From positions 1-64,000 of the forward strand of contig CAWCUT010000002.1 in assembly GCA_963798875.1 (NCBI GenBank): a stretch of DNA of 64,000 bases, read 5' to 3'. The notes under the pieces were generated by a model. The model saw only the letters and a program-made list of their open reading frames with translations. It ran no database searches and had not been told where the DNA came from. Positions within the stretch are counted from its first letter, which is position 1. The number at the start of each line of letters is the position of its first letter. Source of the stretch: an uncultured Solirubrobacterales bacterium. GTDB taxonomy: Bacteria; Actinomycetota; Thermoleophilia; Solirubrobacterales; 70-9. Below are positions 26,632 through 57,715 of the stretch, one piece after another. A program made the position numbers and the translations under genes.

Positions 26632-26991
26632 ATGCTCCAGAGCTATCTCCCAGTGATCGTCTTCGCCGGCCTCGGCATCGCCGTCGGCGGCGCCTTCACG
26701 GCGCTCAACAAGGTCCTCGGACCGTCGAAGCCGAACGCGGTCAAGTCCGAGGCCTACGAGTGCGGGCTGCCCTCCGACATCCAGCGGACGTTCCGCTTCG
26801 GAATCAGCTTCTACATGATCGCGATGCTGTTCATCCTCTTCGACATCGAGGTCGTCTTCCTGTATCCGGTGGGCGTGATCCTGAACGGCGCCTCGAGCGT
26901 CTTCGTGCTCGTCGAGGTGCTCGTCTTCGCCGCGCTGCTGCTCGTCGCGCTCGCCTACGTCTGGCGCCGGGGGGCCCTCAACTGGAGGTAG
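26632..26991 (+). CDS. nuoA: NADH-quinone oxidoreductase subunit A.
   Basis: [31 protein letters not shown]...AYECG...[10 protein letters not shown]. Internal ATG of the track ORF 26353-26991. Confidence 0.85.
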
Positions 26992-27077
26992 AGCGGCACA
27001 AGCTGCGCGGCCTGCAGCCGCTCGACCAGCCCCGCAGCCCCGAGGAGCTGCGGATCCGGCAGCTCCGCGCGCGCGAC

Positions 27078-27923
27078 ATGCAGCGTGGCGATCTCGACGG
27101 TCCCGACCTCGAGGAGTACGTCGAGCAGCGGCTGCTGACGACGACGATGGACAAGGCCATCGCCTGGGCGCGCGGCAATGCGATGTGGCCGGCGACGTTC
27201 GGCCTCGCCTGCTGCGCGATCGAGATGATGTCGATGGTCTCGGCCCGCTACGACACCGCCCGCTACGGCGCCGAGGTCTTCCGCGCCTCGCCGCGGCAGG
27301 CCGACATGCTGATCCTCTCGGGCCGGGTCTCGATCAAGATGGTCCCGGTCATCCGCCGCATCTACGACCAGATGCTGGAGCCGAAGTGGGTGCTCTCCAT
27401 GGGGGCCTGCTCTTCCTCCGGCGGGATGTTCGCCAACTACGCGGTCGTCCAGGGCGCCGACAAGTTCCTGCCGGTCGACATCCACATCCCCGGCTGCCCG
27501 CCGCGGCCGGAGGCGCTGATGTACGGGATCCTGAAGCTGCGCGACAAGGTCCTCGGCGACCCGGACCTCGGCTGGCGCGACCAGTACGCGGCCCACGGGA
27601 CCGAGGAGGACGAGCGCCCCTGGCAGGCGGGCGCGATTCGGAGTCGAGCGGGCCGGCGCGGCCCCCTCCGACGGCCGGCTCGTCGGCAAGGCCGACGCCG
27701 GCCGCGCCGAGAAGCTGATCGCCGACGCGGAGCTGATCAAGCTCGCCCAGGAGCCGGTCTCCGAGTCGGAGATGGTCCGCGACGCGGCCTCCCGCGCGCG
27801 GGGCACCGCCGACGGCGAGGAGAGCTCGATGCCGGGCACGCGCGCCGACAGCGGCGAGGCGGAGAGCCGCAGGCGGGCGACGGGAGACTGGGACGATGCC
27901 TGACGCACCCGGCCTCGAGCTGA
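27078..27923 (+). CDS. nuoB: NADH-quinone oxidoreductase subunit B with a long low-complexity C-terminal tail, possibly frameshifted.
   Basis: [51 protein letters not shown]...[10 protein letters not shown]...CPPRPEAL. The core ends around 27600. The remaining 300 nt read as Arg/Gly junk in-frame but as plausible protein in another frame. Confidence 0.75.
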
Positions 27924-28426
27924 TCGCGCACGAGATCAACACGCGCCACGACGGCGCCGTGATCGGGACCAGCTACGACCGGGCCCAGCCGGTGCTGCTG
28001 ACGACGCCGGAGCACATCCGCGAGGTCCTCCGCTGGCTCAGGGAGGCGCCGGGGCAGGAGTACGGGTTCCTCGCCTCGTTGCACGCCGCCGATTACCTGC
28101 CGGCCGAGCCCCGCTTCGCGGTCCACTACGAGCTGCTCAACATGAACCGCGTGGAGCGGCTCTCGGTCAAGTGCCTGATCGCCGAGCCCGCGGACGGCGC
28201 GCTGCCGCAGTCGCACACGGTCGTCGACATCTTCCCGACGGCCTACTTCCAGGAGCGCGAGGCCTACGACTTCTTCGGCATCGTCTTCGAGGGCCATCCC
28301 GATATGCGCCGGATCCTCTTGCCCGAGGACTACGTCGGCTGGCCGCAGCGCCGCGACTTCCCGGTCGGCGGCGATCCCGTGATCTTCACGAACACCGAGA
28401 ACGAGGTCCCGGGCTGGACCCGGTAG
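27896..28426 (+). CDS. nuoC: NADH-quinone oxidoreductase subunit C.
   Basis: 176-aa ORF with ...[30 protein letters not shown]...[27 protein letters not shown].... Confidence 0.85.
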
Positions 28427-28507: not shown

Positions 28508-29752
28508 ATGGGCCGCGACGCGGTCGGCCGCACCGAAGCGCAGGTAATCGGCACCTCGCCGATCGAGCACACCGCGATCGAGCGCGAGGAGGAGCTCTTC
28601 ACGGTCAACATGGGGCCGCACCACCCCGCGACGCACGGCGTCCTGCGGCTGCTCGTCTCGCTCGAGGGCGAGGTCGTCCGCGACCTCAAGCCGGTGATGG
28701 GCTACGTCCACACCGGGATCGAGAAGTCCTGCGAGGAGAAGTCGTACTGGAAGGTGATCCCGTTCGTGGAGCGGATGGACTACCTCTCCTACTACTTCAA
28801 CGCGGAGGCCTTCTGCGGCGCCGTCGAGAAGCTGCTCGAGCTCGAGATCCCGCCCCGCGCCAAGTGGCTGCGGACGCTGCACATGGAGCTCAACCGGATC
28901 AGCTCGCACCTCGTCGGGCTCGGTACGACGGCGCTCGACCTCGGCGCGATGTCGATGTTCTGGTACTGCTTCCGCGAGCGCGACAAGATCCTCGACCTGA
29001 TGGAGATGTCGTCGGGGCAGCGCATGCACACGCGCTACTTCCAGGTCGGCGGCGTGATCGAGGACATCCCGCTCGGCTTCGAGGAGAAGGTGCTCGCCTT
29101 CTGCGACGACATGCCGAACCGCGTCGACCAGTACGCGGCGCTGCTGCAGAACAACGAGATCTTCCTGCAGCGGACCAAGGACGTCGGCGTCGTCTCCGCC
29201 GAGCGCCTGCTCGACCTCGGCGTCACCGGGCCGCTGCTGCGCGCCGCGGGCGTGCCCTGGGATCTGCGCAAGGTCGATCCCTACCTCGCCTACGGCGAAG
29301 TCGACTTCGACGTCCCCGTCGGCACCGTCGGCGACAACTGGGATCGCTTCATCGTCCGGACCGAGGAGATGCGGCAGTCGACGCGGATCATCCGCCAGTG
29401 CGTCGAGAAACTGCCCGAGGGTCCGTGGATCGCCGACGATCGCAAGATCGTGCTGCCGCCGCGGCACGAGCTCGGCACCTCGATGGAAGCCCTGATCCAC
29501 CACTTCAAGCTCGTCACCGAGGGCTTCCGCGTGCCGCCCGGCGAGGTCTACAACCCGATCGAGTCGCCGCGCGGCGAGCTCGGCTGCTTCGTCGTCGCCG
29601 ACGGCTCCGCGAAGCCGGCCCGCGTGCACATGCGCGAGCCCAGCTTCGTCAACCTGCAGTCGCTGCGCGACATGTGCATCGACGAGTACGTCGCCGACAT
29701 GATCGCCAACCTCGCCTTCCTCGACCCGATCCTCGGAGGCATCGACCGGTGA
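28508..29752 (+). CDS. nuoD: NADH-quinone oxidoreductase subunit D.
   Basis: VNMGPHHPATHGVLRL...SSMEALIHHFKLVTEGFRVPPGEVY...SPRGELG. The N-terminus may be truncated by a frameshift: an upstream out-of-frame ATG at 28438 gives a more typical length. Confidence 0.85.
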   Translation: MGRDAVGRTEAQVIGTSPIEHTAIEREEELFTVNMGPHHPATHGVLRLLVSLEGEVVRDLKPVMGYVHTGIEKSCEEKSYWKVIPFVERMDYLSYYFNAEAFCGAVEKLLELEIPPRAKWLRTLHMELNRISSHLVGLGTTALDLGAMSMFWYCFRERDKILDLMEMSSGQRMHTRYFQVGGVIEDIPLGFEEKVLAFCDDMPNRVDQYAALLQNNEIFLQRTKDVGVVSAERLLDLGVTGPLLRAAGVPWDLRKVDPYLAYGEVDFDVPVGTVGDNWDRFIVRTEEMRQSTRIIRQCVEKLPEGPWIADDRKIVLPPRHELGTSMEALIHHFKLVTEGFRVPPGEVYNPIESPRGELGCFVVADGSAKPARVHMREPSFVNLQSLRDMCIDEYVADMIANLAFLDPILGGIDR

Positions 29753-30503
29753 GCCGAGGATCCGGACGAGGCCGAGGGCGAGCACCGACCGCCGAGAGCG
29801 GCAAGCCGCCCGTGCCCGAGGAGGGCACGCCACCGGGCGACGAGCAGGCCGGGCGCCGAGGTCGGCCGATCGGCGCCGAGGAGGAGAGTCAGGGCCACTA
29901 CCGCGAGCCCGACGGCCGGCGTCGAGGTTCCCGACGATCTCCGCGCCGAGATCGAGGCGGCTCTCGCCCGCTACCCGCAGAAGCGCTCCGCCTCGCTGCC
30001 GGCCCTGCATGCGATCCAGGCCCGCTACGGCTGGTGCACGCCGGAGGGAATCGAGCAGGCGGCAGCGGTCATGGACGTCGACCCGGCCTACCTCGAGTCG
30101 GTCGCGAGCTTCTACGACCTCTTCCACCTCGAGCCCGCCGGCCAGCCACCAGGTGCTCGTCTGCACCAACATCTCCTGCTGGATGCGCGGCGCCGACGAA
30201 CTGCTCGACGCGGTCTGCAAGGCAGCGGGCGCCGACCGACACGAGGCCGGCCACGGCGGCACCGTCAACGAGGCCGGCGACATGTTCGTGAGCGGCTTCG
30301 AGTGCCTCGGCGCCTGCGACATCGCGCCGATGACCTCAGTCGACGGCGTCTACTACGGCCCGCTGGAGGACGCGGACGCGCAGACGCTCATCGACCAGCT
30401 CCGCAGCGGCGCCGACGTCCTGCCGGAGAAGGCCCTGAAGCGCGAGGCCGCGGCGGGCGGCCCCGAGCCCGAGCCGGATCCCCGCGTCGCCGACGCCGGC
30501 TGA
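29749..30503 (+). CDS. nuoE: NADH-quinone oxidoreductase subunit E with 2 apparent frameshifts.
   Basis: GTG start overlaps the nuoD stop (GTGA). Core LRAEIEAALARYPQKRSASLPALHAIQARYGWCTPEGIEQAAAVMDVDPAYLESVASFYDLFHLEPAGQ, then frameshift, then HQVLVCTNISCWMRGADELLDAVCKAAG...GFECLGACDIAPMTSVDGVYYG. Frame changes near 29883 and near 30150. Confidence 0.75.
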
Positions 30504-30518
30504 GGGCGGGGCGTCACG

Positions 30519-30550
30519 CCGGCGCGGGCGTCTCCCGCCGGCGTTTGCAG
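30519..30550 (+). terminator. Candidate intrinsic terminator after nuoE.
   Basis: GC-rich inverted repeat gccggcgcgggcg/cgcccgccggc followed by GTTTGC, immediately after the nuoE stop. Weak U-tract. Confidence 0.3.
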
Positions 30551-30905
30551 TGAGGGAAGTCGGCCGAAGTGAGCCTTCCGTGCTCCCGCGCGCGCCTCTC
30601 ATGACGGAATCGCGTGGCCTCGCGGTCCCCGGCAAGGACACTGGTCACGTTGCACCGCAACCTGCGGTGGAACGTGACCACTCGCCTAAACGGCCTCCCA
30701 ACCCGTCACGGAAGCCAAACGCCCTCGCGCCTTCCGTGACACCTCCGTAGGCCCACACCCCTTACTGCTCCCGAGGCATCACCCGTCCGCCGGGGTCCCG
30801 GCCCCGCGGGGCGTAACCCCACCGCGCACAATCGCCAGCCTCAATCGCTCGCATCGGAGCCACCCCGTCGCGGGGCGTCACGCCATCGCCCGCGAGGGGG
30901 GCCTC

Positions 30906-31290
30906 ACTCCCAGGGCAGCCGGACCGGCCGGCCCGGCGAGTAGCCCAGCGAGAGCCAGTCGTGCAGGCCGCCGCGGTAGTAGAGGAGTGCCTCCGGCGGG
31001 GCGCCGGCGGCGAGCAGGGCCTTGATCGCGCGGGGCGTGGCCCGGCACTGCGGGCCGTTGCAGAAGAGAGCGACCGGGGCACGCTCGACGAGCTCGATCG
31101 ACGTGCTCGGCGATCTCCGCCGAGGGGATTGCGACGGCGCCGGGAATCGTGCCGTGCGCGACCGACTCAGGAATCCGGGTGTCGACGGCGAGCCCGCCGG
31201 CCTCGAGATGCTCGATCAGCTCGAGCTCGCCGATCGTCTCGACGCCCGGCGCGAGCCGCAGCGGCTGCACGGTGCCCCAGCTCGAGTCGA
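30906..31290 (-). CDS. Single-domain rhodanese (sulfurtransferase) with one frameshift. Start is approximate.
   Basis: …ELIEHLEAGGLAVDTRIPESVAHGTIPGAVAIPSAEIAEHVD, then frameshift, then ELVERAPVALFCNGPQCRATPRAIKALLAAGAPPEALLYYRGGLHDWLSLGY. Active-site Cys in CNGPQC. Confidence 0.55.
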
Positions 31291-31455
31291 CGGTGACGAA
31301 GCCGTCGCCCGCCCTGAGCGGGATCGCTCGGGACGTCGGTCGGCGGTGTGGCGCAGGTACGGGCCTTCGGGCGGCCTGAGGGAGCGTCGCCCGACCGGGT
31401 CGGCAAGGTCGTGCGGTGCATCGGTGGGGGCAGTGCCTGTGAGGGCGGCATCGGA

Positions 31456-32666
31456 CTAACCGACCCTCACGCCGCGGCTGCGCGAGGCGAGGAAGAGGCG
31501 CTCGAAGGCGAGCTTCGCCCAGTGCGCCTGCGGTCCGTGCATGATCCGCGGGTTCTCGCTGTCGCCGAGCACGTGGTCGGCCTTGAAGATGACGCCGTTG
31601 TTGCCGGCGTCGAGGACGCAGACCGCGGCGAGGTCGGCGAGCGGCAGCTCCTCGTGCAGCGCCATCGTCGATGTCGGCGGCGATGTTGCGCGCGGCGACC
31701 TCGGCCATCTTCTCGCTCATGTGCCCGGTCTTCGGGACCCCGGCCGGCACCGGCGTCTCGCCGGGCGGCGGGATCGCGATGTCGACCCCGGCGGCGAACA
31801 CCTCGGGGTGATCGACGTGGCGGTACTGGGCGTCGACGGGAATGAAGCCCATCGGGTTGGCGAGGCCCTCGGTGTCGCGGACCACGTCGACCCCGGTGAA
31901 CGGCGGCACGATCATCGAGAAGCTGAAGGGCAGCGTGCGGCCGCCCTCGAGGTGCATCTCGCCGTCGTCGACGCGCTCGATCTCGTTGTTGGTGATCCCC
32001 TCGATCCCGAGCCGGTCGAAGAACTTGCCGACCATCTCGGAGGAATTGCCCACGCCGCCGAGACCGAAGTGGCCGAGGAACGGCTCGGCCGTGACGAAGG
32101 TGACGGGGGCGACGTCCTCGAGCCCCGCCTTCTTGATCCGGTGCTTGACGTTGAAGAGGAACTCGTAGGAGGCGCCGAAGCAGCAGCCGCCCTGGGCGGT
32201 GCCGATCACGACCGGGCCCGGGTCGTCGAGGAACCGCTCCCAGGACTCGCGGGCGTGCGAGCGCGTGCTCGAGGTTGCAGATCGAGCTCGTGTAGCCGCT
32301 CCTCGGGGCCGAGGCCGGCGATCTTCTCGAAGGCGAGCCGCGGGCCCGTCGCCAGCAGCAGCCGGTCGTACGGAGCGTCTGCCCACCCGAGGTCGCGACC
32401 TCGCGGTTGGCGAGATCGATCCGCGTCGCCGCCTCGTTGACGAAGCGGATCCCCTTGCGCTCGTACATCGGCGCCAGCGGGAAGGTGACGTCGTCGGGCT
32501 CGCGGATGCCGAGCGGCAGCCAGATCAGCGACGGGATGAAGGTGAAGTCCTCGCGCGGGTCGAGGACGACGACCTCGTGCTCGTCGGCGAGCTGCTTGCG
32601 GAGCTCGAGCGCCGCGGTCAGCCCCGCGAAGCTCGAACCGACGACGACGACACGTTGGGCTGGCAA
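31456..32666 (-). CDS. sqr: Sulfide:quinone oxidoreductase-like FAD-dependent pyridine-nucleotide-disulfide oxidoreductase, frameshifted.
   Basis: RBS GGAGG plus TTG start. N-terminal RVVVVGSSFAGLTAALELRKQL...VVVLDPREDFTFIPSLIWLPLG. Middle CCFGASYEFLFNVKHRIKKAG...FVTAEPFLGHFGLGGVGNS. C-terminal MHGPQAHWAKLAFERLFLA. Pieces lie in at least 3 frames. Confidence 0.65.
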
Positions 32667-32837
32667 GGCGAACCTCCTGATCGGGAACCGGCCCCCCGTT
32701 CGAGGAGCTGCCCCCGATGGTGCCCTTAGCCGCAGGCGCCTACATCCGTGGCGCGGCGCCGACGGCCTGCGGGTATCCCGCAACGCCGCCCGTCGCCGGG
32801 CGGTGGGCCGGGCACGAGGCCGGAGGCGGGACTCAGC

Positions 32838-33610
32838 TCAGGAGCCGGAGGCCTTCTGGATCGCGTCCTCGACCTGGCCGGTCGACGGCGCGGCACCGAC
32901 GACCTGCGTGCCGCCGGGGCCCTCGACGAGCAGCGAGGGCGTGCTCGAGAAGCCCTTCTCGCTGGCTTCCTTCTGGATGGCCTGCAGCTGCTTCGTCCAC
33001 TTGTCGGAGTTGCGCGAGGTGTTCCAGGCGTCGATGTCCTTGACGCCGGCCGCCTCGGCGACGTCCGTCAGGAACTCGTCGGTGACGTAGCCCGAGTTCT
33101 CCGTGCCCTGGTTGGCGTAGAAGGTCTCGACGAACTGCCAGTAGCGGCCCTGCTCGGAGGCCGCCAGCGCCGCCTTCGCGGCGTCGACGGACTGCGGGCC
33201 GATGATGATGAAGTTCTTGAACTCGATGTTGGCGTCGCCGGCGTGACCGGGCCGGAGAGGAGCTCGGGGATCGACTTGTCGCTGAATGCCTTGCAGGCGG
33301 GGCACTGCAGGTCGCCGAACTCGACGATCGTCGCCTTCGCGTTCGGGTCGCCAAGCACGGTTCCGTTCTGATCGAGGCCGTTGACGAGATCGACGGTCGA
33401 GTTGGTCGTGATCTCGTTGGCGTTGCCCCCGCTGGAGTCGCTGCCGGACTGGCTGATCACGATCAACGCGACGACGACCACCACCGCAATCAGCGCCACG
33501 CCGCCGATGATCGCGAACATGCGCTGGCGCGCGGCCTGGCTCGATTCGGCCTGCTCGGCCTCGAGCCGTTCCTGCCGTCGCTGTTCCTTCTCGTCCTTGC
33601 GGGATGCCAT
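32838..33610 (-). CDS. DsbA-like thiol:disulfide oxidoreductase (membrane-anchored), one frameshift.
   Basis: N-terminal TM (MFAIIGGVALIAVVVVVALIV). Thioredoxin active site GDLQCPACKAF. The C-terminal half (…GRYWQFVETFYANQGTENSGYVTDEFL…) is in a second frame. Confidence 0.6.
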
Positions 33611-33639
33611 CCGGTCGGGTGTCCTCTCTGGGGTGGGGT

Positions 33640-34116
33640 CTAGCTGGGTAGGGGCTCTCGCGGTGCCGTGCTAACGCCGGCGAACCGTATCCCGCGCAGC
33701 AGGCTAACGATGAGCACGAGGGTCATGACGATCGCGCTGCCCACGCACCACTGGCAGATCGCGTTGATGACGAAGAGCTCCAGGTAAGTCAGGTAGGCGG
33801 AGAAGCCGAAGCCGATCAGCGCCGCGAGGATGCCGAGCATCCGGCCGGGGTCGCCGGGTAGCGCTGCGGCGACGAGCACCGCGACGTAACCGAGCAGCCC
33901 GAGCACAGGAACCGGGATGCCGGCGAGCTTCGCGTAATCGGAGTGCTGCACGGTCTCACAGCCGCCACCGAAGGCGCAGACGGGGTTGTCGCCGCCGGCG
34001 TAGTGCTCGATCGTCAGGTAGACGGCGATCCCAAGGCCGATCAGGCCAAGCACGCCGAGCGTTATCCGCAGACGTCGTTCGGTCACGCCTCTTCTCCGCG
34101 CTGCGCCACGCCGCAA
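33640..34116 (-). CDS. Vitamin K epoxide reductase (VKOR) family protein.
   Basis: Four-TM protein with CAFGGGC and CQWC motifs. Adjacent to the DsbA-like gene, the usual actinobacterial DsbA/VKOR pairing. Confidence 0.75.
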   Translation of the reverse strand: MRRGAARRRGVTERRLRITLGVLGLIGLGIAVYLTIEHYAGGDNPVCAFGGGCETVQHSDYAKLAGIPVPVLGLLGYVAVLVAAALPGDPGRMLGILAALIGFGFSAYLTYLELFVINAICQWCVGSAIVMTLVLIVSLLRGIRFAGVSTAPREPLPS

Positions 34117-34195
34117 GGGTAAGCGGTTCCCATCTTCCGCACCTAAACACCTACGGGCACCGCGGGTGGCGGGTTCACTGCAGCTGTGCTACTCT

Positions 34196-34216
34196 CATTC
34201 ACAACTGTTTAGTTGT
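34196..34216. promoter_or_regulatory. Candidate ArsR-family operator.
   Basis: AT-richer sequence cattCACAACTgtttAGTTGTata with the perfect 6-4-6 inverted repeat ACAACT/AGTTGT, about 25 nt upstream of the arsR-like start. Confidence 0.4.
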
Positions 34217-34237
34217 ATAGCTTGAAAGGCAACCCAG

Positions 34238-34579
34238 ATGGCCCTTCCGTCACCGATCCCTGAGCCCGTCGTCGAGCTCATCGCCGGGCGCTTCCGGCTC
34301 CTCAGCGAGCCGATGCGGATCCGCGCCCTCGACCAGCTGCGGGAGGCCGGCGAGGCCTCCGTCAGCGAGCTCTCCGAGGCACTGGGCACGAGTCAGCAGA
34401 ACGTCTCCAAGCACCTCGGCGCCCTCCATGGCGACGGCATCGTCAGCCGCCGCAAGGACGGCAACCGCGTGCTCTACGCGATCGCCGACGACTCCGTGCT
34501 CGAGATCTGTGAAGCCGTCTGCGGCGGCATCGAACGCCGCGTCGGCGAGCTCTCCAACGCCCTGGCGGCGGTGGCCTGA
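34238..34579 (+). CDS. ArsR/SmtB-family transcriptional regulator.
   Basis: Winged-helix core (LSEPMRIRALDQL...ASVSELSEALGTSQQNVSKHLGALHGDGIV). C-terminal CEAVCGG pair of Cys. Stop overlaps the downstream ATG (TGATG). Confidence 0.8.
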   Translation: MALPSPIPEPVVELIAGRFRLLSEPMRIRALDQLREAGEASVSELSEALGTSQQNVSKHLGALHGDGIVSRRKDGNRVLYAIADDSVLEICEAVCGGIERRVGELSNALAAVA

Positions 34580-36714: not shown

Positions 36715-36748
36715 TGCGAAAGCCAACCAACGAGCCAAGGAGTCACCG

Positions 36749-38131: not shown

Positions 38132-38196
38132 TCGCCGGCGAGGCGTCACGTTCCATGTCGTCACGACATGCTTCGTAACCAGCCGGCGGGGCGCCG

Positions 38197-38970: not shown

Positions 38971-38979
38971 GCGCAGCCG

Positions 38980-43934: not shown

Positions 43935-43969
43935 CGGGCCGAGCCTATGGGAAACGCCCCTGCACGGAT

Positions 43970-45768: not shown

Positions 45769-45800
45769 TCGGCGGCGGCGGGCCCGACGCGGCTTCGGGG

Positions 45801-46073: not shown

Positions 46074-46129
46074 ACGACGAGCGGGGCCCGCAGGCCCCGC
46101 TCGAGGTGTGCTTTGTTCGGTCGGTGGCG

Positions 46130-46546: not shown

Positions 46547-46595
46547 TCCCCTCGTGGTTGCGGAACGAAGGTAGGCCGCCTGTTGCCGGCCACCG

Positions 46596-46612
46596 TCACC
46601 CGGTCAGGGTGA
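46596..46612. promoter_or_regulatory. Palindromic motif TCACCCGGTCAGGGTGA (site 2).
   Basis: Identical 17-mer to site 1. About 50 nt upstream of the paralog B start. Lies between the gad stop and the paralog. Confidence 0.45.
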
Positions 46613-46628
46613 TCTTCGCCGCACCCGC

Positions 46629-48032: not shown

Positions 48033-48141
48033 GCTTCTCCTCGTTCCGTATCCCCCGCCGTGCGAGGCTCGGAGGCGAGCGTGAAGCGCCGCGCGAGCAC
48101 GCGCATCACCACGTCTGGGTGAAACGGGGACCGCGCCCCGG

Positions 48142-49566: not shown

Positions 49567-49602
49567 CCACCCGATCGTACGCCCACGCGGCGGCCTTCCA
49601 GC

Positions 49603-49619
49603 TCACCCGATCGGGGTGA
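49603..49619. promoter_or_regulatory. Palindromic motif TCACCCGATCGGGGTGA (site 3).
   Basis: In the divergent intergenic region between DUF2252 (minus) and the 49653 membrane protein (plus). About 35 nt upstream of the plus-strand ATG. Confidence 0.4.
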
Positions 49620-49652
49620 TGTTGCCGCTCCTCCCCCAGATAGCTTGCGGCG

Positions 49653-50291
49653 ATGGCCGTACATGCGGGAACCCTGAAGGCCCGACCCGGGCTGCCGCGG
49701 CTGATCGGCGGCCTCTTCGCGATCGGCTCGGTCTGCTTCTTCGTCGGTCCCTTCCCCGGCTTCGTCAACCTGGTCGGTGCCGAAGCCGACGGCATCACCT
49801 TCTTCGTCGGCTCGCTCTTCTTCACGTCGGCGGCGCTGCTACAGGCACTCGAGGCGCACGGCAAGGACAGGCTGCCGACGCTGATCCAGTTTGCCGGCAC
49901 GATCTTCTTCAACGTCAACACCTACCGGGCGCTGCAGACGACGATCGACAACTCCGACGTCAACAGGCTGATCTGGGCGCCGGAGGCGATCGGCTCCGCC
50001 TGCTTTCTGATCTCGGGCGCGATGGCGTTCGCCGACATCCGCGGTCAGGGCTTCTCGCTGCGGCACAGCGCCGAGGGCAGGATCGCCTCGATCAACCTGG
50101 CGGGCTGCGTCTTCTTCGTGATCGCCACGATCGCCTCTTACGTCGTCCCGAAGACGGGCGACGCGCTCGACCTCGCGGCCGCGAACTGGAGCACGGCGCT
50201 CGGCGCGCTCTGCTTCTTCGCGGGCGCCGTGATCCTCGCGCGCGCCTCTGCGCCTGACTCAGCGGGCGAGCGGCCGCGCGTCGCCGGCTGA
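49653..50291 (+). CDS. Hypothetical polytopic membrane protein.
   Basis: 212 aa with about 6 TM helices. No family recognised. Confidence 0.5.
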   Translation: MAVHAGTLKARPGLPRLIGGLFAIGSVCFFVGPFPGFVNLVGAEADGITFFVGSLFFTSAALLQALEAHGKDRLPTLIQFAGTIFFNVNTYRALQTTIDNSDVNRLIWAPEAIGSACFLISGAMAFADIRGQGFSLRHSAEGRIASINLAGCVFFVIATIASYVVPKTGDALDLAAANWSTALGALCFFAGAVILARASAPDSAGERPRVAG

Positions 50292-50416
50292 CGGCAGCCG
50301 CTGCGGCTTGGGTGAGGCCGGGGGCGCTACCGGTGCCGGCGTCGGGGGCGGCAGGTAGGAGCCGGTCGCGATCGCGATCGCCCGTAGCAGTGGGGTCCGG
50401 CGCACCACCAGCTTGC

Positions 50417-50770
50417 TCATGGCCCGTGATCCCCGGCGGCAGCGCCCGGCAAGCCCATGCCCAGCGCCAGCATCAGCTCGGGAGCGGCGGCGATCGCCCG
50501 CGCCTCCCCGACCAACGGCGCGACGGCGCGAAGCAGCTCCAACAACTCGGCGGGCGTAACCCCGGCGTCGATCGCGGCCGTCACCTGGCGACCGTAGGCG
50601 GCGGGCGGCGCATCGAGCGCCGTCGAAACGGCAAGACGGACGAGCGCCACGGTGCGCTCACCGAGGGCCGAGGCCGGCGGCTGCTCGCCGAGCCCTCCGG
50701 CCAACGCCTCGGGCCGGCCCGAGGCGACCTCCGCCAACGCCCTGTGAACCTCGGTCTCGCTCGCGCCCAT
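50417..50770 (-). CDS. AhpD/carboxymuconolactone-decarboxylase-like protein.
   Basis: Internal ATG (MGASETEVHRALAEV…) of track ORF 50417-50914. Helical AhpD-like fold features. The palindrome site lies about 60 nt upstream. Confidence 0.5.
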   Translation of the reverse strand: MGASETEVHRALAEVASGRPEALAGGLGEQPPASALGERTVALVRLAVSTALDAPPAAYGRQVTAAIDAGVTPAELLELLRAVAPLVGEARAIAAAPELMLALGMGLPGAAAGDHGP

Positions 50771-50829
50771 GTCTCCTCGTTGCCCTCGTCGCCGAGTCCG
50801 AAAGCTATGGGCAGCGGCCTCGGCGATCA

Positions 50830-50846
50830 TCACCCGAACGGGGTGA
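50830..50846. promoter_or_regulatory. Palindromic motif TCACCCGAACGGGGTGA (site 4).
   Basis: 6-5-6 inverted repeat upstream of the AhpD-like gene on the minus strand, just 3' of the LAL regulator stop. Confidence 0.4.
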
Positions 50847-50852
50847 GGGCGT

Positions 50853-53204
50853 TCAGCCGGGCTGACGGATCGCCGCTTTTGCCTCGCGCGACGCCCCCGA
50901 GCCGGGCAGCTCACCGCCGGCGATCAGCCCCGCGGCCTGGGCGACGTCGACCGCCTCCGCACGCGAGCTGACGCCGAGCTTGCGGTAGATCGATCGTGCC
51001 TGGGACTTGACCGTGTTGGTCGACACGAACAGCTGCGCGGCGATCTCGCGGAAGCTGTGGTGGGTCGGCAGCTGGTGCAGGAGGCGGAGCTCCGCCGGGG
51101 TCAGCGGCCAGCGCGTCTCGCCACCGGAGGCGGCGGCCTCCTCGCGTGCCCGGCCGAGCATCTCCTCGAGGACGGGCGCCCCGACCGCCCGCCGCACGTG
51201 CGGCTCGGCCTCGTCGAGCCAGCGATGGGCGCCGGCGAAGTCGTCGAGCTGCAGCAGCGCCCGGGCGAGGACGATCCGCGCCTCGGCCTCGTACCAAGAA
51301 CTCATATCGGTGATCGCTGGAATCAGCGCGGCGGCCTGCCGCGCCGACGTGACTGCATCGTTGACCCGGCCGCGGCGAGCTTTGATCAAGGCCGTCACCG
51401 CGATCGCCAGCGCCTGAGTCTCGTGCCTATCGATCCCGTAGCGCTGGACCGTCGCCGCACTGTGTTCCTCGAGCGCCCAGGCCTCGGTCTCGGCACCGGC
51501 GTCAAGCAGGAGGAGTGCGTGCTGCGCGAGGCAGAGGCTGCGGACCGTCGGCGCGGCGCGGTCGCCGAGCCGGGCGCCCTCGGCGAGCGCCTCGGCAGCA
51601 CCGTCTCCGTCGCCGCCGAGATGCCGGGCGACGCCCTCGATGAAGCAGGCGAGCGAGCGCCACGGATCGCTCTCGGGAAGGAGGGCGCGGGCTCTGGCGC
51701 CGGCATCAAGCGCATCCGGGAGTGCTACCGCGATGCCGCCGGAGGCGGCGATCAGGTCCGCCCCGAACTCGATCGAGGAGCGCTCGTCCTTGGGCACGAA
51801 CTCGAGCGCCGCCCGGGCAGCCGCCGTCAGGCGGTCGACGCCGGCGCCGTCGCCGGCGTTCAGGTCGAGCGCCGCCTGTGTCAACGCCAGCTGCGGGTTC
51901 GCCAGGATCGTCGCGTCGCTGAAGCGCGCCAGCCACGCCGCGACGCCCGCGACGCGCCCATGGCTGGCGTAGTCGGGCACGTGCTCCCACAGCAGGCGAC
52001 CGGCGGCAACCTCATCACCGCTGGTGATCGCGTGCTCGATCGCCCGATCGGCATCGCCCCGCTCGGCGTAGATGCGGCTCGCGCGCAGCTGCAGCTCCCT
52101 GAGGCGGCCGGAGCCGCGGCGCTCTAGTTCGCCGAGCAACATCTCGCGCAAGAGCGCGTGATAGCGGAAGTCGCGGTCGAAGCGGTCAAGCGGAATCACG
52201 AGCGGGTTCGACTGCGAGAGCCGGCGCAGGTCCTCGGCCGATCCCTGGCGGCCGAGCAGCGCGTCGCAGGCTTCCCCGTCGAGCTGCTCGAGCACCGAGC
52301 ATTCGATCAGGAAGGTGCGATCCTCTTCCTCGAGGACCGAGATCAACTCCTCGCGCAGGTAGTCGGCGATCACGCGGTCCTCTCCGGTAAAGCGCCGGAT
52401 CGCGTCGTCGGCATCGGGCGCATCGGCGAGTGAGAGGGCGGCCAGGTAGACCGCGACCGGCCAACCCTCCGTGTGCTCCGCGAGCTCCTTGAGTGGGCCA
52501 GGACCGAGCTCGATCCCGGCGACCTCGAGGAACGCGGCGATCTCGCCCCGCGTCATTGCCAGCGGCTTCGGCCCGATCTCGGCGAGGCGACCCTCAGCGC
52601 GCAGCCGGCCGAGCTTCAGTCCCGGATCGCCGCGGGTCGCCACCGCCAGTTGCGAGCCCTCCGGCATCGCCATTGCCAGTGCGCGGATCAGCTCGAGCGC
52701 CCCTGGATCGGAGACGAGATGGAAGTCGTCGAGGACGATGACGAAGGGGCGCTCGCGGGCGGCCACCAGCGCGGCCAGCCGCGGGGTCACCGAAGAGATG
52801 AGACCCGGGCGTGCGCCCACGAGCAGATCGAAGACGGCCGGATCAACCGGGTCGATCGAGTCGAGGACGGTGGCCAGCGTCCGGGCGAGGAAGACAGGAT
52901 CGTTGTCGCGATCGTCGATCGTCACCCAGCCGAACGGACGCGGGTCGGCGGCGTCCCATTCGGTCAGCAGTGTCGTCTTGCCGGATCCGGCCGGCGCCGC
53001 CAGCAAGAGCATTGCGCAGCGCGCGTAGACGTCGAGCTGCTCGACCAGACGCCGCCGTGTGATCAGTCCCCGTTCGGGGCTCCATGCCGGGCTTGGCAGG
53101 CGCAGCGGAACGGGTGCCGCTGCGTTCTCGCTGCTCGCTTGTACCCCGATGGTGCGTCGACCTCCAGCGATCTGCCACGTGCCCAGGCTTGGGCCGAAGG
53201 GCAC
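50853..53204 (-). CDS. LAL-family (large ATP-binding LuxR) transcriptional regulator.
   Basis: N-terminal P-loop (LAAPAGSGKTTLL). Long TPR-like helical middle. C-terminal LuxR HTH (LTPAELRLLHQLPTHHSFREIAAQLFVSTNTVKSQARSIYRKLGVSSRAEAV). The true start is probably somewhat downstream of the track start. Confidence 0.75.
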   Translation of the reverse strand: MPFGPSLGTWQIAGGRRTIGVQASSENAAAPVPLRLPSPAWSPERGLITRRRLVEQLDVYARCAMLLLAAPAGSGKTTLLTEWDAADPRPFGWVTIDDRDNDPVFLARTLATVLDSIDPVDPAVFDLLVGARPGLISSVTPRLAALVAARERPFVIVLDDFHLVSDPGALELIRALAMAMPEGSQLAVATRGDPGLKLGRLRAEGRLAEIGPKPLAMTRGEIAAFLEVAGIELGPGPLKELAEHTEGWPVAVYLAALSLADAPDADDAIRRFTGEDRVIADYLREELISVLEEEDRTFLIECSVLEQLDGEACDALLGRQGSAEDLRRLSQSNPLVIPLDRFDRDFRYHALLREMLLGELERRGSGRLRELQLRASRIYAERGDADRAIEHAITSGDEVAAGRLLWEHVPDYASHGRVAGVAAWLARFSDATILANPQLALTQAALDLNAGDGAGVDRLTAAARAALEFVPKDERSSIEFGADLIAASGGIAVALPDALDAGARARALLPESDPWRSLACFIEGVARHLGGDGDGAAEALAEGARLGDRAAPTVRSLCLAQHALLLLDAGAETEAWALEEHSAATVQRYGIDRHETQALAIAVTALIKARRGRVNDAVTSARQAAALIPAITDMSSWYEAEARIVLARALLQLDDFAGAHRWLDEAEPHVRRAVGAPVLEEMLGRAREEAAASGGETRWPLTPAELRLLHQLPTHHSFREIAAQLFVSTNTVKSQARSIYRKLGVSSRAEAVDVAQAAGLIAGGELPGSGASREAKAAIRQPG

Positions 53205-53444
53205 GTTATGGGCCGGGGCGGGGCCTCACTCAGTACTTACCCGTAGAAGGCGCGCGCCGCCTCACCCGATTGGGGCTAGAAGTGCCGCCTCTGCAGCGCA
53301 TAGCTTCTCTGCATCCTCTTCGACCTGCCGACATGGGTACTGGCGCTCACGATCGTCGCCGCAACCTTCGGGGCGACGGCGCTCGGCGCCTGGGTCGGCC
53401 GGCACTCCCGGCATCTGAGCGAGCACCTCAGCGAGCCGCTCGGC

Positions 53445-54089
53445 GTGCTGCAGGGAGCGCTGCTCGGCGTGGTCGGGCTGATCCTCGCCTTCGGCCTCTC
53501 GCTGGCACTCTCCCGCTACGAGGACAGGCGGGCGACGATCGTCGGCGAGGCGAATGCGATCGGCACGACGTACCTGCGTGCGCAGCTGCTCGAGCCCGGC
53601 ATCCGCGGCCCCTCCCTCAGGCTGCTCGACAGCTACGCGCACCAGGCGGTCGACGTCGCCGACCGGGTCCCCGGCAGCGACACCGAGAAGGCAGCAGTGG
53701 CGAACGAGGAGTCGCTGCAGGAACGCCTCTGGGCCCTGGCCCGGCGCGCCGTCGCCGAGCAGCCGGTCGCAACTGGACCGCGTCTGTACGTCGAGACGCT
53801 GAACAACATGATCGATGCTCAGGGGACGCGCCAGGCGGCGCTCGCCAACCGGGTTCCGCACCCGGTGCTGCTGCTCGAGCTGCTCGGCGGCGCCGTTGCA
53901 CTGGCGCTGCTCGCCGGCTACCTGGCAATGATCGGGCGCGGGGGCAGCGCCGTCTTCGTGATCGCCGGCCTCGTCGCCTTCCTGCTCTTCGTCATCGCTG
54001 ACCTCGACCGGCCGACGCGAGGGCTGATCAAGGTCCCCGACACCCCGCTCGAGAACCAGTACCAGTCGCAGCTGCACCCACCCGGGTAG
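53445..54089 (+). CDS. DUF4239 (bestrophin-like) membrane protein.
   Basis: GTG start. …RYEDRRATIVGEANAIGTTYLRAQLLEP… The in-frame TM region upstream (to about 53300) lacks a canonical start. A weaker palindrome variant, TCACCCGATTGGGGCT, lies at 53262-53277. Confidence 0.5.
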   Translation: MLQGALLGVVGLILAFGLSLALSRYEDRRATIVGEANAIGTTYLRAQLLEPGIRGPSLRLLDSYAHQAVDVADRVPGSDTEKAAVANEESLQERLWALARRAVAEQPVATGPRLYVETLNNMIDAQGTRQAALANRVPHPVLLLELLGGAVALALLAGYLAMIGRGGSAVFVIAGLVAFLLFVIADLDRPTRGLIKVPDTPLENQYQSQLHPPG

Positions 54090-54187
54090 CCAGGCACGCC
54101 CGAGGGCCTGCCTGGGTTCCTGTTCAGGTAGGTTGAGCGGGTGATCGACGTCACTCGCAAGTTCCCTCTGTCACTAGGTCGGACCGC

Positions 54188-56708
54188 TTGAGCAAGGCCG
54201 AGAAACCGCAGATCACGATCGTCGTCGACGGCGTCGAGATCGAGACCACGGAAGGCCGGATGCTGGTCGACGCCGCCAAGTCCGGCGACGTCGAGATCCC
54301 GGTCTTCTGTTACGAGCCGAAGCTCGGCGACCCGGTCGGCGCCTGCCGCATGTGCCTGGTCGAGATCGAGGGCATCCCAAAGCTGCAGACCGCCTGCTCG
54401 ACCCCGGTCCGGGACGGGATGGTCATCTACACGCAGACCGACCGGGTCAAGGAGGCGCAGAACGCGGTCGTCGAGTTCCTGCTCGTCAACCACCCACTCG
54501 ATTGCCCCGTCTGCGACAAGGGCGGCGAGTGCCCGCTGCAGGACATCTCGATGGGCTGGGGTCCCGGCCGCAGTCGCGTCACCGATCCGAAGCGCCACTT
54601 CCAAAAACCGATCCCGCTGAGCCCGCTGATCAAGATCGACCGCGAGCGCTGCATCCTCTGCTACCGCTGCGTGCGCTTCAGCCAGGAGGTCGCCGAGGAC
54701 GAGCACCTGCAGCTGCTCGAGCGCGGCCCGAAGACGTTCGTCGGGACCTTCAACGACCGGCCCTACTCCGCCCCCTTCCACGGCAACATCATCGAGCTCT
54801 GTCCCGTCGGCGCCCTGACCTCGCAGACGTACCGCTTCCGGGCGCGGCCGTGGGACATCGAGGACGCGGGTTCGGTCTGCACGCTCTGCCCGAGCCAGTG
54901 CAACGTCAAGTTCACCGTCCGCGACGAGCAGGTCGTCCGCGTCCTCGGCCGCGACAACCACGACGTCGACGACGGCTGGCTCTGCGACAAGGGCCGCTTC
55001 GGCTTCGAGATGTTTGCCTCCGACAATCGACCGCTGGGGCCGCAGGTGCGGACCGGCGGCGCGCTCGGTGAAGCGACCTGGGCCGAAGCACTGGAGCGAA
55101 CCGCACGCGGGCTGACCGAGGCGCACGGCAAGGTCGCCGCGATCGTCGGCGGCGGCGCCTCGAACGAGGAGGCCTACTTGATCCAGCGCATGGTTCGCGG
55201 CCCGCTCGCCTCCCACGACGTCGTCGGCGCCGAGCACGGCGCCGTCCCCGCCGCGTCGCGCGCGGCGCTCTCCGATCCGGACCTCGCCCTCTCGATGGGC
55301 GACATCGACGGCGCCGACGCGATCCTCGTGGTCGGCACGGACCCGATGCACGACATGCCGATCCTCGAGCTGCGGATCCGCAAGGCCGTGCGCCGCCACG
55401 GTTCCGACCTGCTCGTCGCGACCGAGCGCCCGACGGCGCTCGACGGTGGCGCGGCGGTGGGCTCCTCCGGATGCCTGGAGGCGGCGCGGTATGCACCCGG
55501 CGGCGCGGCGGCCTTCCTCGCCTCGCTGGCCGCCGAGCTGCAGGGCGAAGGCGATGGCGCCAACGGCTTCGCCGAGGCTCTGCGCGGAGCGGAGGACGTG
55601 GCGATCGTGTGGGGCGAGCGGATCTCGACCGGTCCCGGCGGCGAGAGCGCCGTCTCCTCGCTGCTCGAGATCGCCGACGCGCTCGGGCTCGCCGGGCAAG
55701 CCCGGCAGCGGCCTGCTCGAGGTTCCCGCTCGCCGCCAATGGCCGCGGCCTCCGCGAGGCGGGCGCCTACGAGAACGTCGGCCCGGGGCTGGTGCCGCTC
55801 GCCCGCAGCGGGCGCGACGCCGATGCGATCCGCGAGGCGCTCGAAGCCGGCGAGCTCGAGGCCCTGATCCTCTGGGATGTCGACCCGGTTCGCGACTTCG
55901 CCGACCCCGAGGGCTGGGCGCGGGCGATCGGCGCCGCCAACTTCACCCTGAGCGTCTCGATGTTCGACGGTGCCAGCGCCAAGGGCGCCGACGTGCACCT
56001 GCCGGCGGAGACACACGCCGAGAAGGAGGGCAGCGTCACCCACCCGGACGGGCGCCTGCAGCGGGTCCGGCCCTCGGTGCCGCATCCGGGGGCGGTGCGG
56101 CCCCTGTGGCAGGCGCTGACCGAGCTCAGCGCGCAACTCGGCGACGAGACCGGCGCCGGCACCGCCGGTGAGGTCTTCGAGCTGCTCGCCGCCGAAGCGC
56201 CGATCTACGCCGGGCTCACCTACGACCGGATCGGCGGCACCGGGATCCGCTGGCAGGAGGTCAACGCCGCGGCCGGCGCCCGAGCGGCTCGGCCGCCCCC
56301 GCCCCCGTGCCGCACGCCACCGAGCCGGCAGCCGGGATGCTGCGACTCGGCACCTACCACGACCTCTGGGCCGACTACGTCGCCGAGCGCAACCCGAGCC
56401 TCGAGTACCTCTCACCGCCGCAGACGCTCGAGCTCAGCGAAGGCGCCGCGCGCGGGCTCGGCGTCGGCAACGGAACCGAGGTGATCGTCACCGGCGAGAC
56501 CGGCGAGGAGCTGCGCGCCGTCGTCGCGATCCGGCCGCGGATGCCCGACGACGTCGGCTTCTTGATCGAGGGCACCGCCGAGGACGCCGCGAACCTGCTC
56601 GGCGAGGCGCGCGCGATCAGCGTCGCCGTCGCGCCTGCGGCGGAGGAGGACGAGGCACCGGCCCTCGGCGTCTCGGCCCGCGAGAAGGTCGCAGTGGTAG
56701 CCCGATGA
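54188..56708 (+). CDS. nuoG: NADH-quinone oxidoreductase subunit G with 2 apparent frameshifts.
   Basis: N-terminal 2Fe-2S/4Fe-4S Cys clusters (CYEPKLGDPVGACRMC…CPVCDKGGEC…CILCYRCVRF…CPVGAL…CTLCPSQC). Molybdopterin-like domain continues in a second frame (55471-) and a third (56307-56708). The stop overlaps the nuoH start (ATGA). Confidence 0.8.
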
Positions 56709-57715
56709 GCATCGCCGACGTCAGCTTCGCCGAGGCGACCTGGCTGCTCGTCCTCAAGTCGATCGTGATCTTCTTCGTGATCCTCTCGCTCGTGCCGATC
56801 ATCCTGGTCATCGAGCGCAAGCTGCTCGGCCGCTTCCAGGCGCGCTACGGCCCCAACCGCGTCGGCCCCTTCGGGCTGATGCAGCCGATGGCCGACGTGC
56901 TCAAGCTGCTCACCAAGGAGAGCTACAAGCCCGACAACGCGGTCCCCTACCTGTGGGCGATCGCGCCGGCCCTGGTCATCCTGAGCGCCACGGCGACGCT
57001 CGCGATCATTCCCTTCGGCGACGTCGACGGCAAGGTCGGCCTGTACGGGATCGACGTGCCGATCGGGATCCTCTACGCCTTCGCCTTCGGCTCGATCTCC
57101 TTCTACGGGCTGCTGCTCGGCGGCTGGGCGTCGGGGTCGAAGTTCAGCTTCATGGGCGCAATGCGCTCGGCCGCGCAGCTGATCTCCTACGAGATCTCGA
57201 TGGGACTCTCGCTGCTCGGCGTGGTCATGATGGCCGGCTCACTCAGCCTCGTCGACATCTCCAACGCCCAGGCGGACACCGTCTGGTACGTGATCCCCCA
57301 GTTCGTCGGCTTCATCATCTTCATGGTCTCCGGCTTCGCCGAGTCCAACCGCGCCCCGTTCGACTTGGCGGAGGCCGACGCCGAGCTCGTCGCCGGCTAC
57401 AACACCGAGTACGGCGGCATGCGCTTCGGCTCTTTCTTCATGGCCGAGTACATGGAGATGATCGTCGTCAGCGGCATCGCCGCGGCGATGTTCCTCGGCG
57501 GCTGGCACCTGCCCTTCGGCCTGCACACCCCAGCGCTCATCGGCGTACTCGTGATGCTCGCCAAGATCTTCATCCTGCTGATCTTCTTCATCTGGATCCG
57601 GGCGACGCTGCCACGGCTGCGCTACGACCAGCTGATGTCGCTCGGGTGGAAGGTCCTGCTGCCGCTGGCGACGCTCAACGTGCTGGTCACCGCGGTGCTC
57701 GTCACCGTCACCTGA
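56705..57715 (+). CDS. nuoH: NADH-quinone oxidoreductase subunit H.
   Basis: MSIADVSFAEATWLLVLKSIVIFF…ERKLLGRFQARYGPNRVGPFGLMQPMADVLKL… Internal ATG of track ORF 56168-57715. Confidence 0.85.
   Translation: MSIADVSFAEATWLLVLKSIVIFFVILSLVPIILVIERKLLGRFQARYGPNRVGPFGLMQPMADVLKLLTKESYKPDNAVPYLWAIAPALVILSATATLAIIPFGDVDGKVGLYGIDVPIGILYAFAFGSISFYGLLLGGWASGSKFSFMGAMRSAAQLISYEISMGLSLLGVVMMAGSLSLVDISNAQADTVWYVIPQFVGFIIFMVSGFAESNRAPFDLAEADAELVAGYNTEYGGMRFGSFFMAEYMEMIVVSGIAAAMFLGGWHLPFGLHTPALIGVLVMLAKIFILLIFFIWIRATLPRLRYDQLMSLGWKVLLPLATLNVLVTAVLVTVT

Follow-up and report, generated by a model that had tools for sequence, protein, structure and literature searches.

The genes of respiratory complex I (nuo) were analysed in a window of 64,000 nucleotides, comprising positions 1 to 64,000 of contig CAWCUT010000002.1 (GCA_963798875.1) from an uncultured soil bacterium of the order Solirubrobacterales, phylum Actinomycetota. 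In this window canonical nuo genes are interrupted by genes unrelated to complex I, and this layout is inherited among relatives. The interpretation favored here, held with a probability of about 0.75, is that an ancestral contiguous nuoA-N operon has been expanded in place by stepwise insertions and rearrangements at three boundaries, namely nuoE|nuoF (E|F), nuoF|nuoG (F|G) and nuoH|nuoI (H|I). According to this interpretation, the genes themselves remain functional, and the frame breaks seen in several of them are artefacts.

The nuo genes are readily identified, as each of the subunits NuoA to NuoH scores above its curated Pfam family threshold. Pfam finds every gene where a preliminary description, made from the letters of the sequence, had placed it: nuoA-E, nuoF and nuoG-H all lie on the plus strand and in canonical order (Table 1). 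The separations of about 10 kb and 12 kb claimed there correspond to gaps of 10.2 kb (30504-40665) and 12.2 kb (41980-54187), whose gene contents were also borne out by Pfam and follow-up domain scans. The GTGA overlap between nuoD and nuoE is real (29749-29752). It had further been stated that nuoI-N do not follow nuoH and that an opp operon comes next; this holds, since tblastn with a relative's NuoI-N proteins against both strands of the 64-kb window gave no match and the opp genes lie on the minus strand. Relatives are designated below by L numbers. NuoA is 73% identical to NuoA of L003 over its full 119 aa, and NuoF is 100% identical to database protein P0001, encoded on a contig of 707,633 bp.

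The nearest reference genomes by NuoF are metagenome-assembled genomes (MAGs) of uncultured Solirubrobacterales and Thermoleophilia, with 64-81% identity. In seven of the eight closest (L001-L005, L007 and L008) nuoA-H is contiguous, and the remaining one, L006, is a 4.9-kb contig with contiguous nuoD-G. Open reading frames (ORFs) matching nuoI-M by size and order follow nuoH in L003 and L004, and L089 carries a contiguous nuoA-N. The order cytochrome c, flavin reductase, orf159 and nuoA, which precedes the nuo genes of the window, recurs in L001-L004, L007 and L089; L005 and L008 have the same flank and lack only the flavin reductase match. Because this upstream flank is the same as that of relatives with a contiguous operon, nuoA-E can be placed at the ancestral locus, and sequence comparison indicates that the split is derived and arose there. 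An FHA-domain gene (25578-26063, minus strand) lies between the flavin reductase gene and orf159 in the window and in none of the relatives that share the flank, and thus adds one more small insertion to this locus.

Several relatives show other layouts of the same genes. In L088 (NuoF 89%, GCA_038206985.1), nuoA-E are followed by a minus-strand gene for a 1090-aa protein, by ArsR, dioxygenase-rhodanese and TauE genes, and then by nuoF; CsbD and deacetylase genes on the minus strand separate nuoF from nuoG-H, after which come an SDR gene, nuoI (177 bits against an NCBIfam cut-off of 163) and unrelated genes. In L086 and L087 (NuoF 91%; one JGI and one ENA short-read contig), MMPL, dioxygenase-rhodanese and TauE genes lead into contiguous nuoF-G-H, followed by an SDR gene, an ABC transporter and nuoI. 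Nine JGI metagenome contigs were retrieved with a TauE query. One of them, L099, shows nuoB-E, a minus-strand VKOR gene, and then ArsR, MMPL, dioxygenase-rhodanese and TauE genes; TauE is followed directly by nuoF in six (L093, L095, L096, L097, L098 and L100), with nuoG directly next in four and nuoH reached in two of those four; two of the nine end shortly after TauE without a nuoF match. The nuoI gene is found one to three genes after nuoH in L086, L088 and L100. In L083 (NuoF 90%, a 3.2-Mb contig), the opp genes come first, then nuoH and nuoG (intact, 887 aa) on the other strand, then nuoF facing away, and the breakpoint of this inversion lies in the F|G spacer. The layout of the window itself is shared by L081/L084 (one contig, 98%), L082 (95%) and L085 (NuoH 99%).

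The E|F cassette and the lost contiguity of nuoH and nuoI thus characterize the whole clade (NuoF 78-91%), in more than ten independent assemblies. The F|G insert is limited to the closest relatives (at least 95% NuoF) and varies among them: it is common to L081/L084 and L082, with extra or replaced genes right after nuoF, and is absent from L083, L086-L088 and L093-L100. By this distribution, the interruptions at E|F (by the cassette) and at H|I are old and lineage-typical, and the younger additions are the large F|G insert, the opp block and a coiled-coil gene that precedes nuoF. The preliminary description had offered a choice between insertion into an ancestral operon and a lineage with dispersed complex I, and each is partly right, as the operon is contiguous in nine distant genomes, yet the E|F and H|I interruptions are clade-wide. 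It had also held that the same arrangement in related genomes would speak for a lineage-typical state and not for insertion; such an arrangement was found for E|F and H|I, but not for F|G, which is recent and variable. Its two cargo blocks understate the case: at least three junctions are interrupted, each of them stepwise, in addition to the inversion in L083.

The same comparisons bear on the possibility that nuo blocks were chimerically joined to unrelated DNA during assembly. That the source is a metagenome assembly prone to error is evident and fits this explanation, but the junctions recur in independent assemblies, in other samples and on other sequencing platforms. The junction of nuoE with the cassette is found in L081, L088 and L099; TauE is joined to nuoF, with or without the coiled-coil gene, in L081, L082, L086, L087, L088, L093, L095-L098 and L100; the bestrophin|nuoG junction is found in L084, and that of nuoH with orf169 and opp in L083, L084 and L085. 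The exact joint of nuoF with the potassium channel gene occurs in the window only, as L081 and L082 have one to two extra genes there. Misassembly was set aside because nearly all junctions are repeated in one or more independent assemblies of other samples, and an artefact of this kind is hardly credible.

Integration of both inserts as mobile genomic islands would account for the F|G slot, whose contents differ among close relatives like those of a variable region. The E|F cassette, in contrast, is stably inherited across a broad clade. No integrase, transposase or recombinase domain was detected by Pfam or NCBIfam in any insert gene, and no tRNA gene was found in the window. There is no shift in composition in a window of about 70% G+C: G+C is 0.67-0.74 over 26-58 kb, and the codon model scores the inserts as highly as other parts of the sequence. 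Nor do direct or inverted repeats flank the inserts beyond chance: the junctions share k-mers of at most 10-11 nt, within random expectation. Insertion by a mobile element was rejected on the lack of recombinases, tRNA genes, a G+C shift and junction repeats, and the island explanation is considered highly improbable.

In the raw sequence, nuoB, nuoE and nuoG are interrupted by eight frame-breaking single-base insertions, at ~27639, ~29857, ~30146, ~55692, ~55729, ~56275, ~56284 and ~56692 (one in nuoB, two in nuoE and five in nuoG). These were placed by frameshift-aware alignment to the intact NuoB and NuoE of L088 and the NuoG of L083 (887 aa), with nuoE also aligned to L003. A codon-usage hidden Markov model switches frame in the same three genes, and the C-terminal domains of nuoG match in other frames of the raw sequence. 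The preliminary description, which read nuoE and nuoG as single ORFs, had passed over the breaks and had not considered assembly error. Two additional nuoG frameshifts in an L003-based alignment, at 55463 and 55516, disappeared with the closer L083 NuoG and were discarded as alignment noise. The ATGA overlap described for nuoG and nuoH is false because of the extra C at 56692: L084 and L085 read ...GTCGAGTGGTAG-CCCG-ATG, with the nuoG TAG 4 nt 5' of the nuoH ATG, and the true nuoG stop is the TAG at window 56698-56700.

Frame correction restores recognizable proteins. In a three-frame view aligned to L088, nuoB runs to 27903 and shares its last 8 nt with the start of nuoC; the C-terminal extension of about 100 aa that it encodes (window 27640-27903) is also present in L088 (NuoB of 289 aa, L088 548-1417). 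When aligned to L088, the corrected NuoB contains LACC, GAC and GCPP motifs, including PGCPPRP, and the corrected NuoE contains VCTNISC and ECLGAC. The Fe-S ligand motifs of both proteins, which we take to be the ligands of clusters N2 (NuoB) and N1a (NuoE), are therefore kept. NuoE of the clade begins with about 60 additional aa of low complexity, and both NuoB and NuoE of the clade are longer than the versions of order-level relatives.

The nature and distribution of the lesions point to their origin. In a three-way alignment of the window with L084 and L085 over 9 kb, all coding indels whose length is not a multiple of three are +1 insertions private to one assembly (seven in the window, two in L084 and none in L085). 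Seven of the eight nuo frame breaks are private to the window, and L085 is free of them all. Single-base insertions at 59239 and 63148, again private to the window, break oppF and oppA, and the same type of lesion affects the SQR gene, msrB and the essential serS, whose stitched product, after about four frame corrections, matches TIGR00414 end to end with 404 bits. Dense frame slips occur at window 23362-24687 (minus strand), 21156-21500 (plus strand), 10193-13185 and 19122-25089; when stitched, these stretches yield full-length serS, msrB, an alpha/beta-hydrolase, a response regulator with a PAS histidine kinase, a GGDEF protein, and NfeD with SPFH. In L082, the MMPL gene has 27 indels of lengths other than multiples of three, yet its ratio of nonsynonymous to synonymous substitution rates (dN/dS) is 0.15. 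The nuoG gene is called in pieces also in L001, L084 and L089, and intact orthologs of the broken genes are present in L083, L085 and L088. Several of the ten insertion sites compared adjoin CG-rich GAGCGG-like strings, and no common sequence motif could be statistically established at these ten sites.

In bacterial pseudogenes deletions are favored, and natural decay would be expected to include them. The eight nuo frame breaks are almost certainly single-base insertion errors of long-read metagenome assembly and not mutations, because the lesions are insertion-only and mostly private, dN/dS is low, and serS is broken in the same manner. Among the relatives, L001, L003 and L008 carry MFD bin names, and the ENA records of L081-L085 are named in the Flye style, contig_NNNN. 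The long-read MAGs of the MFD series were produced by Nanopore-only Flye assembly with a single round of Medaka (PMC12313526), and we infer that the window comes from the same series.

Selection on the nuo genes was estimated as dN/dS against relatives 94-96% identical in DNA. Values against L081 are 0.07 for nuoD (C-terminal 115 codons), and 0.04 before and 0.14 after the 30146 slip for nuoE; those for nuoF are 0.04, 0.12 and 0.14 against L081, L082 and L083, respectively. Compared with L085, nuoG has 0.13 overall, 0.08 between slips and 0.20 after the slips, and nuoH has 0.035. All five genes thus evolve under purifying selection (0.035-0.2), and no relaxation downstream of the lesions is seen in nuoE or nuoG. 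This pattern suggests that the nuo genes are most likely intact and functional. It also speaks against a decaying complex I, in which nuoB, nuoE and nuoG would be true pseudogenes, another NADH dehydrogenase would be used, and nuoI-N would already be lost. Decay would explain the eight lesions in the raw sequence, the lack of nuoI-N in the window, the one nuoE lesion common to L081 (which has further nuoE lesions) and the broken nuoG of L084. It does not fit with dN/dS of 0.04-0.2 on either side of the lesions, with five private nuoG lesions unaccompanied by neutral drift, with lesions that are all +1 insertions when pseudogenes generally favor deletions, or with intact orthologs at 95-99% protein identity in L085. 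The same lesion type in serS, msrB, oppF and the SQR gene, and the 27 such lesions in the clearly constrained MMPL gene of the comparable assembly L082, also stand against it, and decay is regarded as very unlikely. A pseudogene assignment, suggested by the spread of nuoG over three frames, was rejected on the dN/dS values, the private insertion-only lesions and the broken serS.

The detached units are preceded by promoter-like sequences. In actinobacteria, leaderless mRNAs have a TANNNT -10 box about 6-7 nt before the transcription start site, with the start codon at the 5' end. The octamer GGTAGGTT, containing the -10-like TAGGTT, occurs only twice in the 64 kb, both strands counted (0.16 copies expected), with one copy ending 6 nt 5' of the nuoF GTG and the other 53 nt 5' of the nuoG start, and the sequence around both boxes aligns as GTTCnGGTAGGTT-N6-GTG. 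A TANNNT hexamer is found 6-8 nt before the nuoF start in L081 (box at ~9973), L082, L083, L086 and L088, even where TauE ends only 28-44 nt upstream. The sequence TTCAGGTAGGTT is kept upstream of nuoG in L084 (~7427) and of the inverted nuoG in L083 (~9640, minus strand), and L088 shows the same box geometry before nuoG and nuoI. From these motifs we infer that each detached nuo unit has a candidate TANNNT-type promoter of its own; the nuoF mRNA is probably leaderless, and the box at 54127-54134 is a candidate promoter of nuoG-H. Transcription would be predicted to start at the G of the nuoF GTG (40666) and, for nuoG, near 54141. A terminator scan over 26-45 kb gave fewer terminator-like sites than shuffled sequences.

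Several observations weigh against the proposed expansion of a single functional operon. A generic sigma-70 scan of 26-45 kb returned no promoters; the candidates are defined by sequence motif. The nuoE slip at 30146 (context …GGCCAGC[C]A…) is common to L081 (~756), an independent assembly about 94% identical in DNA. Such sharing is unexpected under random error and calls for a systematic explanation; with strong purifying selection in both halves of nuoE, the slip could be a systematic basecalling error at that context or a real feature such as a recoding site. The frame breaks are also strongly clustered: about 16 kb at 34.6-53 kb is free of them, and many fall in nuoB, nuoE, nuoG, the SQR gene and 10-25 kb. 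Finally, a search with the NuoI of L088, in which at least 120 matches were listed and eight clusters considered, did not place nuoI-N in the genome of the window or of its closest relatives, and the 10 kb that follow nuoH in L084 and in L085 do not contain them either. A complete complex I in this organism is therefore presumed, with nuoI-N probably encoded elsewhere.

The missing nuoI-N would also be accounted for by a paralogous or repurposed gene set, in which a normal contiguous nuoA-N lies elsewhere and the dispersed copy belongs to a different module linked to NADH or ferredoxin; extra partial nuo sets do occur in some actinobacteria, Streptomyces among them. Yet the dispersed nuoA-E sit behind the same flank as the single contiguous operon of relatives. 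Among the best 120 NuoF and NuoH matches (down to ~78% identity), contigs of 707,633 bp and 977,636 bp contribute only one protein each, and nuoI is still close and in canonical order in L088, L086 and L100, as expected for one operon pulled apart. A second set is accordingly unlikely, and the comparisons identify the dispersed genes as orthologs of the single operon.

Expansion in place would have proceeded in two layers. In the older one, VKOR and DsbA genes on the opposite strand, together with ArsR, MMPL, persulfide-dioxygenase/rhodanese and TauE genes on the nuo strand, would have been placed between nuoE and nuoF, while an SDR gene came between nuoH and nuoI, and nuoJ-N became detached from nuoI. 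The younger layer would comprise the coiled-coil gene on the 5' side of nuoF, genes for channels, stress functions and regulators filling 12-18 kb at F|G, and orf169 with opp after nuoH. The resulting units, nuoA-E, nuoF, nuoG-H and, elsewhere, nuoI and nuoJ-N, would be transcribed separately. Most simply, ordinary recombination would have inserted, deleted and inverted DNA repeatedly at a small number of boundaries between genes, while selection kept the genes intact.

The E|F insert begins with a structured non-coding gap in which nuoE and the SQR gene converge. The zone folds with z = -3.85, contains the local repeat GCGGGGCGTCACGCC, and is 89% conserved in L081. This repeat is not enriched across the window, and Rfam at gathering thresholds gives no match in the zone, so a repeat-family element was rejected. 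The preliminary description took the hairpin cluster as the mark of the first breakpoint; the zone is real, but a breakpoint scar could not be demonstrated in what is a convergent intergenic gap kept in L081. The adjoining SQR-rhodanese gene, stitched across about 5-6 frame slips, gives 533 aa without stops and looks intact. Most of this gene (window 31453-32711, 1.26 kb) is missing from L081, with matching sequence on both sides, which reflects either a real strain deletion or a local assembly collapse. The DsbA homolog of L081 is intact (256 aa), and VKOR follows nuoE in L099 too.

The ArsR-to-TauE cassette shows dN/dS of 0.09-0.25 against L081 and no frame-breaking indels. Its scores lie below the NCBIfam cut-offs for BigR (39 bits, cut-off 155), Blh (40, cut-off 625) and type III SQR (36, cut-off 525); membership in these families is not established, and the genes are described by domain only. 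The cassette is directly 5' of nuoF in L086-L088, L093, L095-L098 and L100, and wherever it directly adjoins nuoF it lies on the nuo strand, 28-145 nt away. This position between nuoE and nuoF is retained throughout the clade and in many environments. In the window, L081 and L082, a minus-strand gene, that of the coiled-coil protein, separates TauE from nuoF; this gene is restricted to the closest clade and absent from L086-L088. It is conceivable, though doubtful, that the sulfide-oxidation cassette has a functional link to the NADH-oxidising module of complex I and is not passive cargo. Read-through from an ArsR-controlled, sulfide- or sulfite-responsive operon would then add a second layer of control on nuoF(-G-H) atop the leaderless promoter, and NADH oxidation would be coupled to sulfide stress on the quinone pool.

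The second insert encodes a potassium channel, a CLC channel, two DUF7144 proteins, SHOCT and DUF6325 proteins, an AI-2E fragment, a glutamate-decarboxylase-like (GAD) enzyme dependent on pyridoxal phosphate, DUF2252, YrhK-like and CMD proteins, a large LuxR-type ATPase regulator and a bestrophin-like protein. Minus-strand genes of the two inserts include those for SQR, DsbA, VKOR, the coiled-coil protein, CLC, GAD, DUF2252 and LuxR. The slot right after nuoF is variable. It holds no extra genes in the window; in L081 (11299-17585) there is 6.3 kb more before the potassium channel gene, with a 1079-aa ORF and a LuxR-type regulator, and in L082 (11316-14066) there is a DUF7948/SBBP protein. L082 also has a CLIPPER-repeat gene (4454-7645) between the TauE and coiled-coil genes. 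After nuoH, orf169 and the opp genes fill the nuoH|SDR junction, and the same adjacency is found in L083-L085, where the opp ATPases are intact.

Table 1. Features of the nuo region in the window (positions in nucleotides from the start of the window).
Feature	Position	Strand	Evidence or remark
Conserved upstream flank of nuo	24475-26603		Pfam; cytochrome c (-), flavin reductase (+) 25099-25599, orf159 (-) 26124-26603
nuoA	26632-26991	+	PF00507, 103 bits
nuoB	27078-27903	+	PF01058, core 27078-27638; raw extra base ~27639, frame 3 to 1
nuoC	27896-28426	+	PF00329, 124 bits
nuoD	28508-29752	+	PF00346, 386 bits
nuoE	29749-30503	+	PF01257; GTG start; raw extra bases ~29857 and ~30146, frame 1 to 2 to 3
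Structured non-coding gap, nuoE and SQR gene convergent	30504-30906		Hairpins 30635-30687, 30692-30753
SQR-like flavoprotein with C-terminal rhodanese	30907-32651	-	Pyr_redox_2 (positions 3-277/291), Rhodanese
DsbA-like thioredoxin-fold protein	32844-33544	-	Pfam; one frame slip
VKOR	33640-34053	-	Pfam
ArsR/SmtB regulator	34238-34579	+	Pfam, NCBIfam
MMPL transporter	34579-36714	+	Pfam, NCBIfam
MBL-fold persulfide-dioxygenase-like protein, two rhodanese domains	36749-38131	+	Pfam, NCBIfam
TauE/SafE exporter	38197-38970	+	Pfam, NCBIfam
Coiled-coil protein, 528 aa	38980-40566	-	No family match (Pfam, NCBIfam)
GGTAGGTT box, -10-like TAGGTT	40652-40659	+	Ends 6 nt 5' of nuoF GTG
nuoF	40666-41979	+	Intact; PF01512, PF10589, SLBB
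Second insert	41980-54187	mixed	Pfam
Second GGTAGGTT box	54127-54134	+	Ends 53 nt 5' of nuoG start
nuoG	54188-56700	+	Fe-S and molybdopterin domains; Pfam matches in three frames
nuoH	56705-57715	+	Intact; PF00146, 391 bits
orf169 (no family) and opp-type ABC transporter operon	58041-64000	orf169 +, opp -	Pfam

Outside the nuo region, the sole Rfam match in the window is a c-di-AMP riboswitch (RF00379, 5265-5410, plus strand, 69.7 bits), directly 5' of the ORF at 5412-5972. A stretch of 1.7 kb at 16864-18595 has a G+C of ~0.64 and no host-like coding signal, and shows neither tandem repeats nor an Rfam match. The ORFs at 17050-17580 (rich in K, Y, W, S and N) and 17587-18018 are of atypical composition with signal-peptide-like N-termini, and they may encode horizontally acquired secreted proteins.

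The nuo operon is among the most conserved bacterial gene orders, and this lineage offers an unusually complete series, from a contiguous operon, through forms interrupted at E|F and H|I, to forms in which F|G is interrupted, inverted or re-filled. It indicates that a 14-gene operon can be dismantled gene by gene with every gene under selection, which is apparently tolerated because each detached piece would have its own promoter. The lineage is thus a useful case for asking why operons persist and whether only certain subunit boundaries can accept a breakpoint. The clustered +1 errors of the long-read MAGs compared here mimic pseudogenes and even fake coupling overlaps; frame breaks by themselves are not sufficient grounds for calling gene decay, and pseudogene calls in this window would mislead.

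Interrupted complex I operons have precedents, and in the nqo operon of Paracoccus denitrificans E|F and F|G are among the interrupted positions. Clusters in which unrelated ORFs are interspersed, as in Rhodobacter capsulatus, are a described category, and a "split" category has been defined with Bdellovibrio and Synechocystis as examples (PMC4758237). As in Rhodobacter and Paracoccus, canonical order and orientation are kept in the window, with non-nuo ORFs between subunit genes, and the ArsR-MMPL-dioxygenase-TauE genes lie on the nuo strand with short spacers like the ORFs of those genera. Those ORFs, in contrast, are few and small and belong to one operon of about 20 kb, whereas the inserts of the window measure 10-12 kb, contain opposite-strand genes and regulators, and vary between relatives. 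Each block of the window also seems to have its own promoter, unlike in these Alphaproteobacteria, and the phylum is a different one, Actinomycetota. The window as a whole therefore departs from the subtype with small same-strand ORFs in one transcription unit, which only the ArsR-to-TauE genes fit.

The nuo genes of Bdellovibrio and the NDH-1 genes of cyanobacteria, like those of this lineage, are spread over several sub-clusters, but the pieces in the window are still collinear at the ancestral locus, and graded intermediates are available. The E|F insert contains the same domain set as sulfide-detoxification clusters (SQR, CstB/Blh-type persulfide dioxygenase-rhodanese, TauE and an ArsR/BigR-type regulator); it differs from them in NCBIfam scores far below the BigR, Blh and SQR cut-offs. 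We know of no described sulfide-detoxification cluster that lies inside a nuo operon or includes an MMPL transporter. Split nuo clusters being already known, the window is a genuine but unsurprising case of them. What sets it apart is the phylum, the size and mixed orientation of the inserts, the presence of a sulfide cassette inside the genes of the N-module, and the stepwise series that connects this layout to a contiguous operon.

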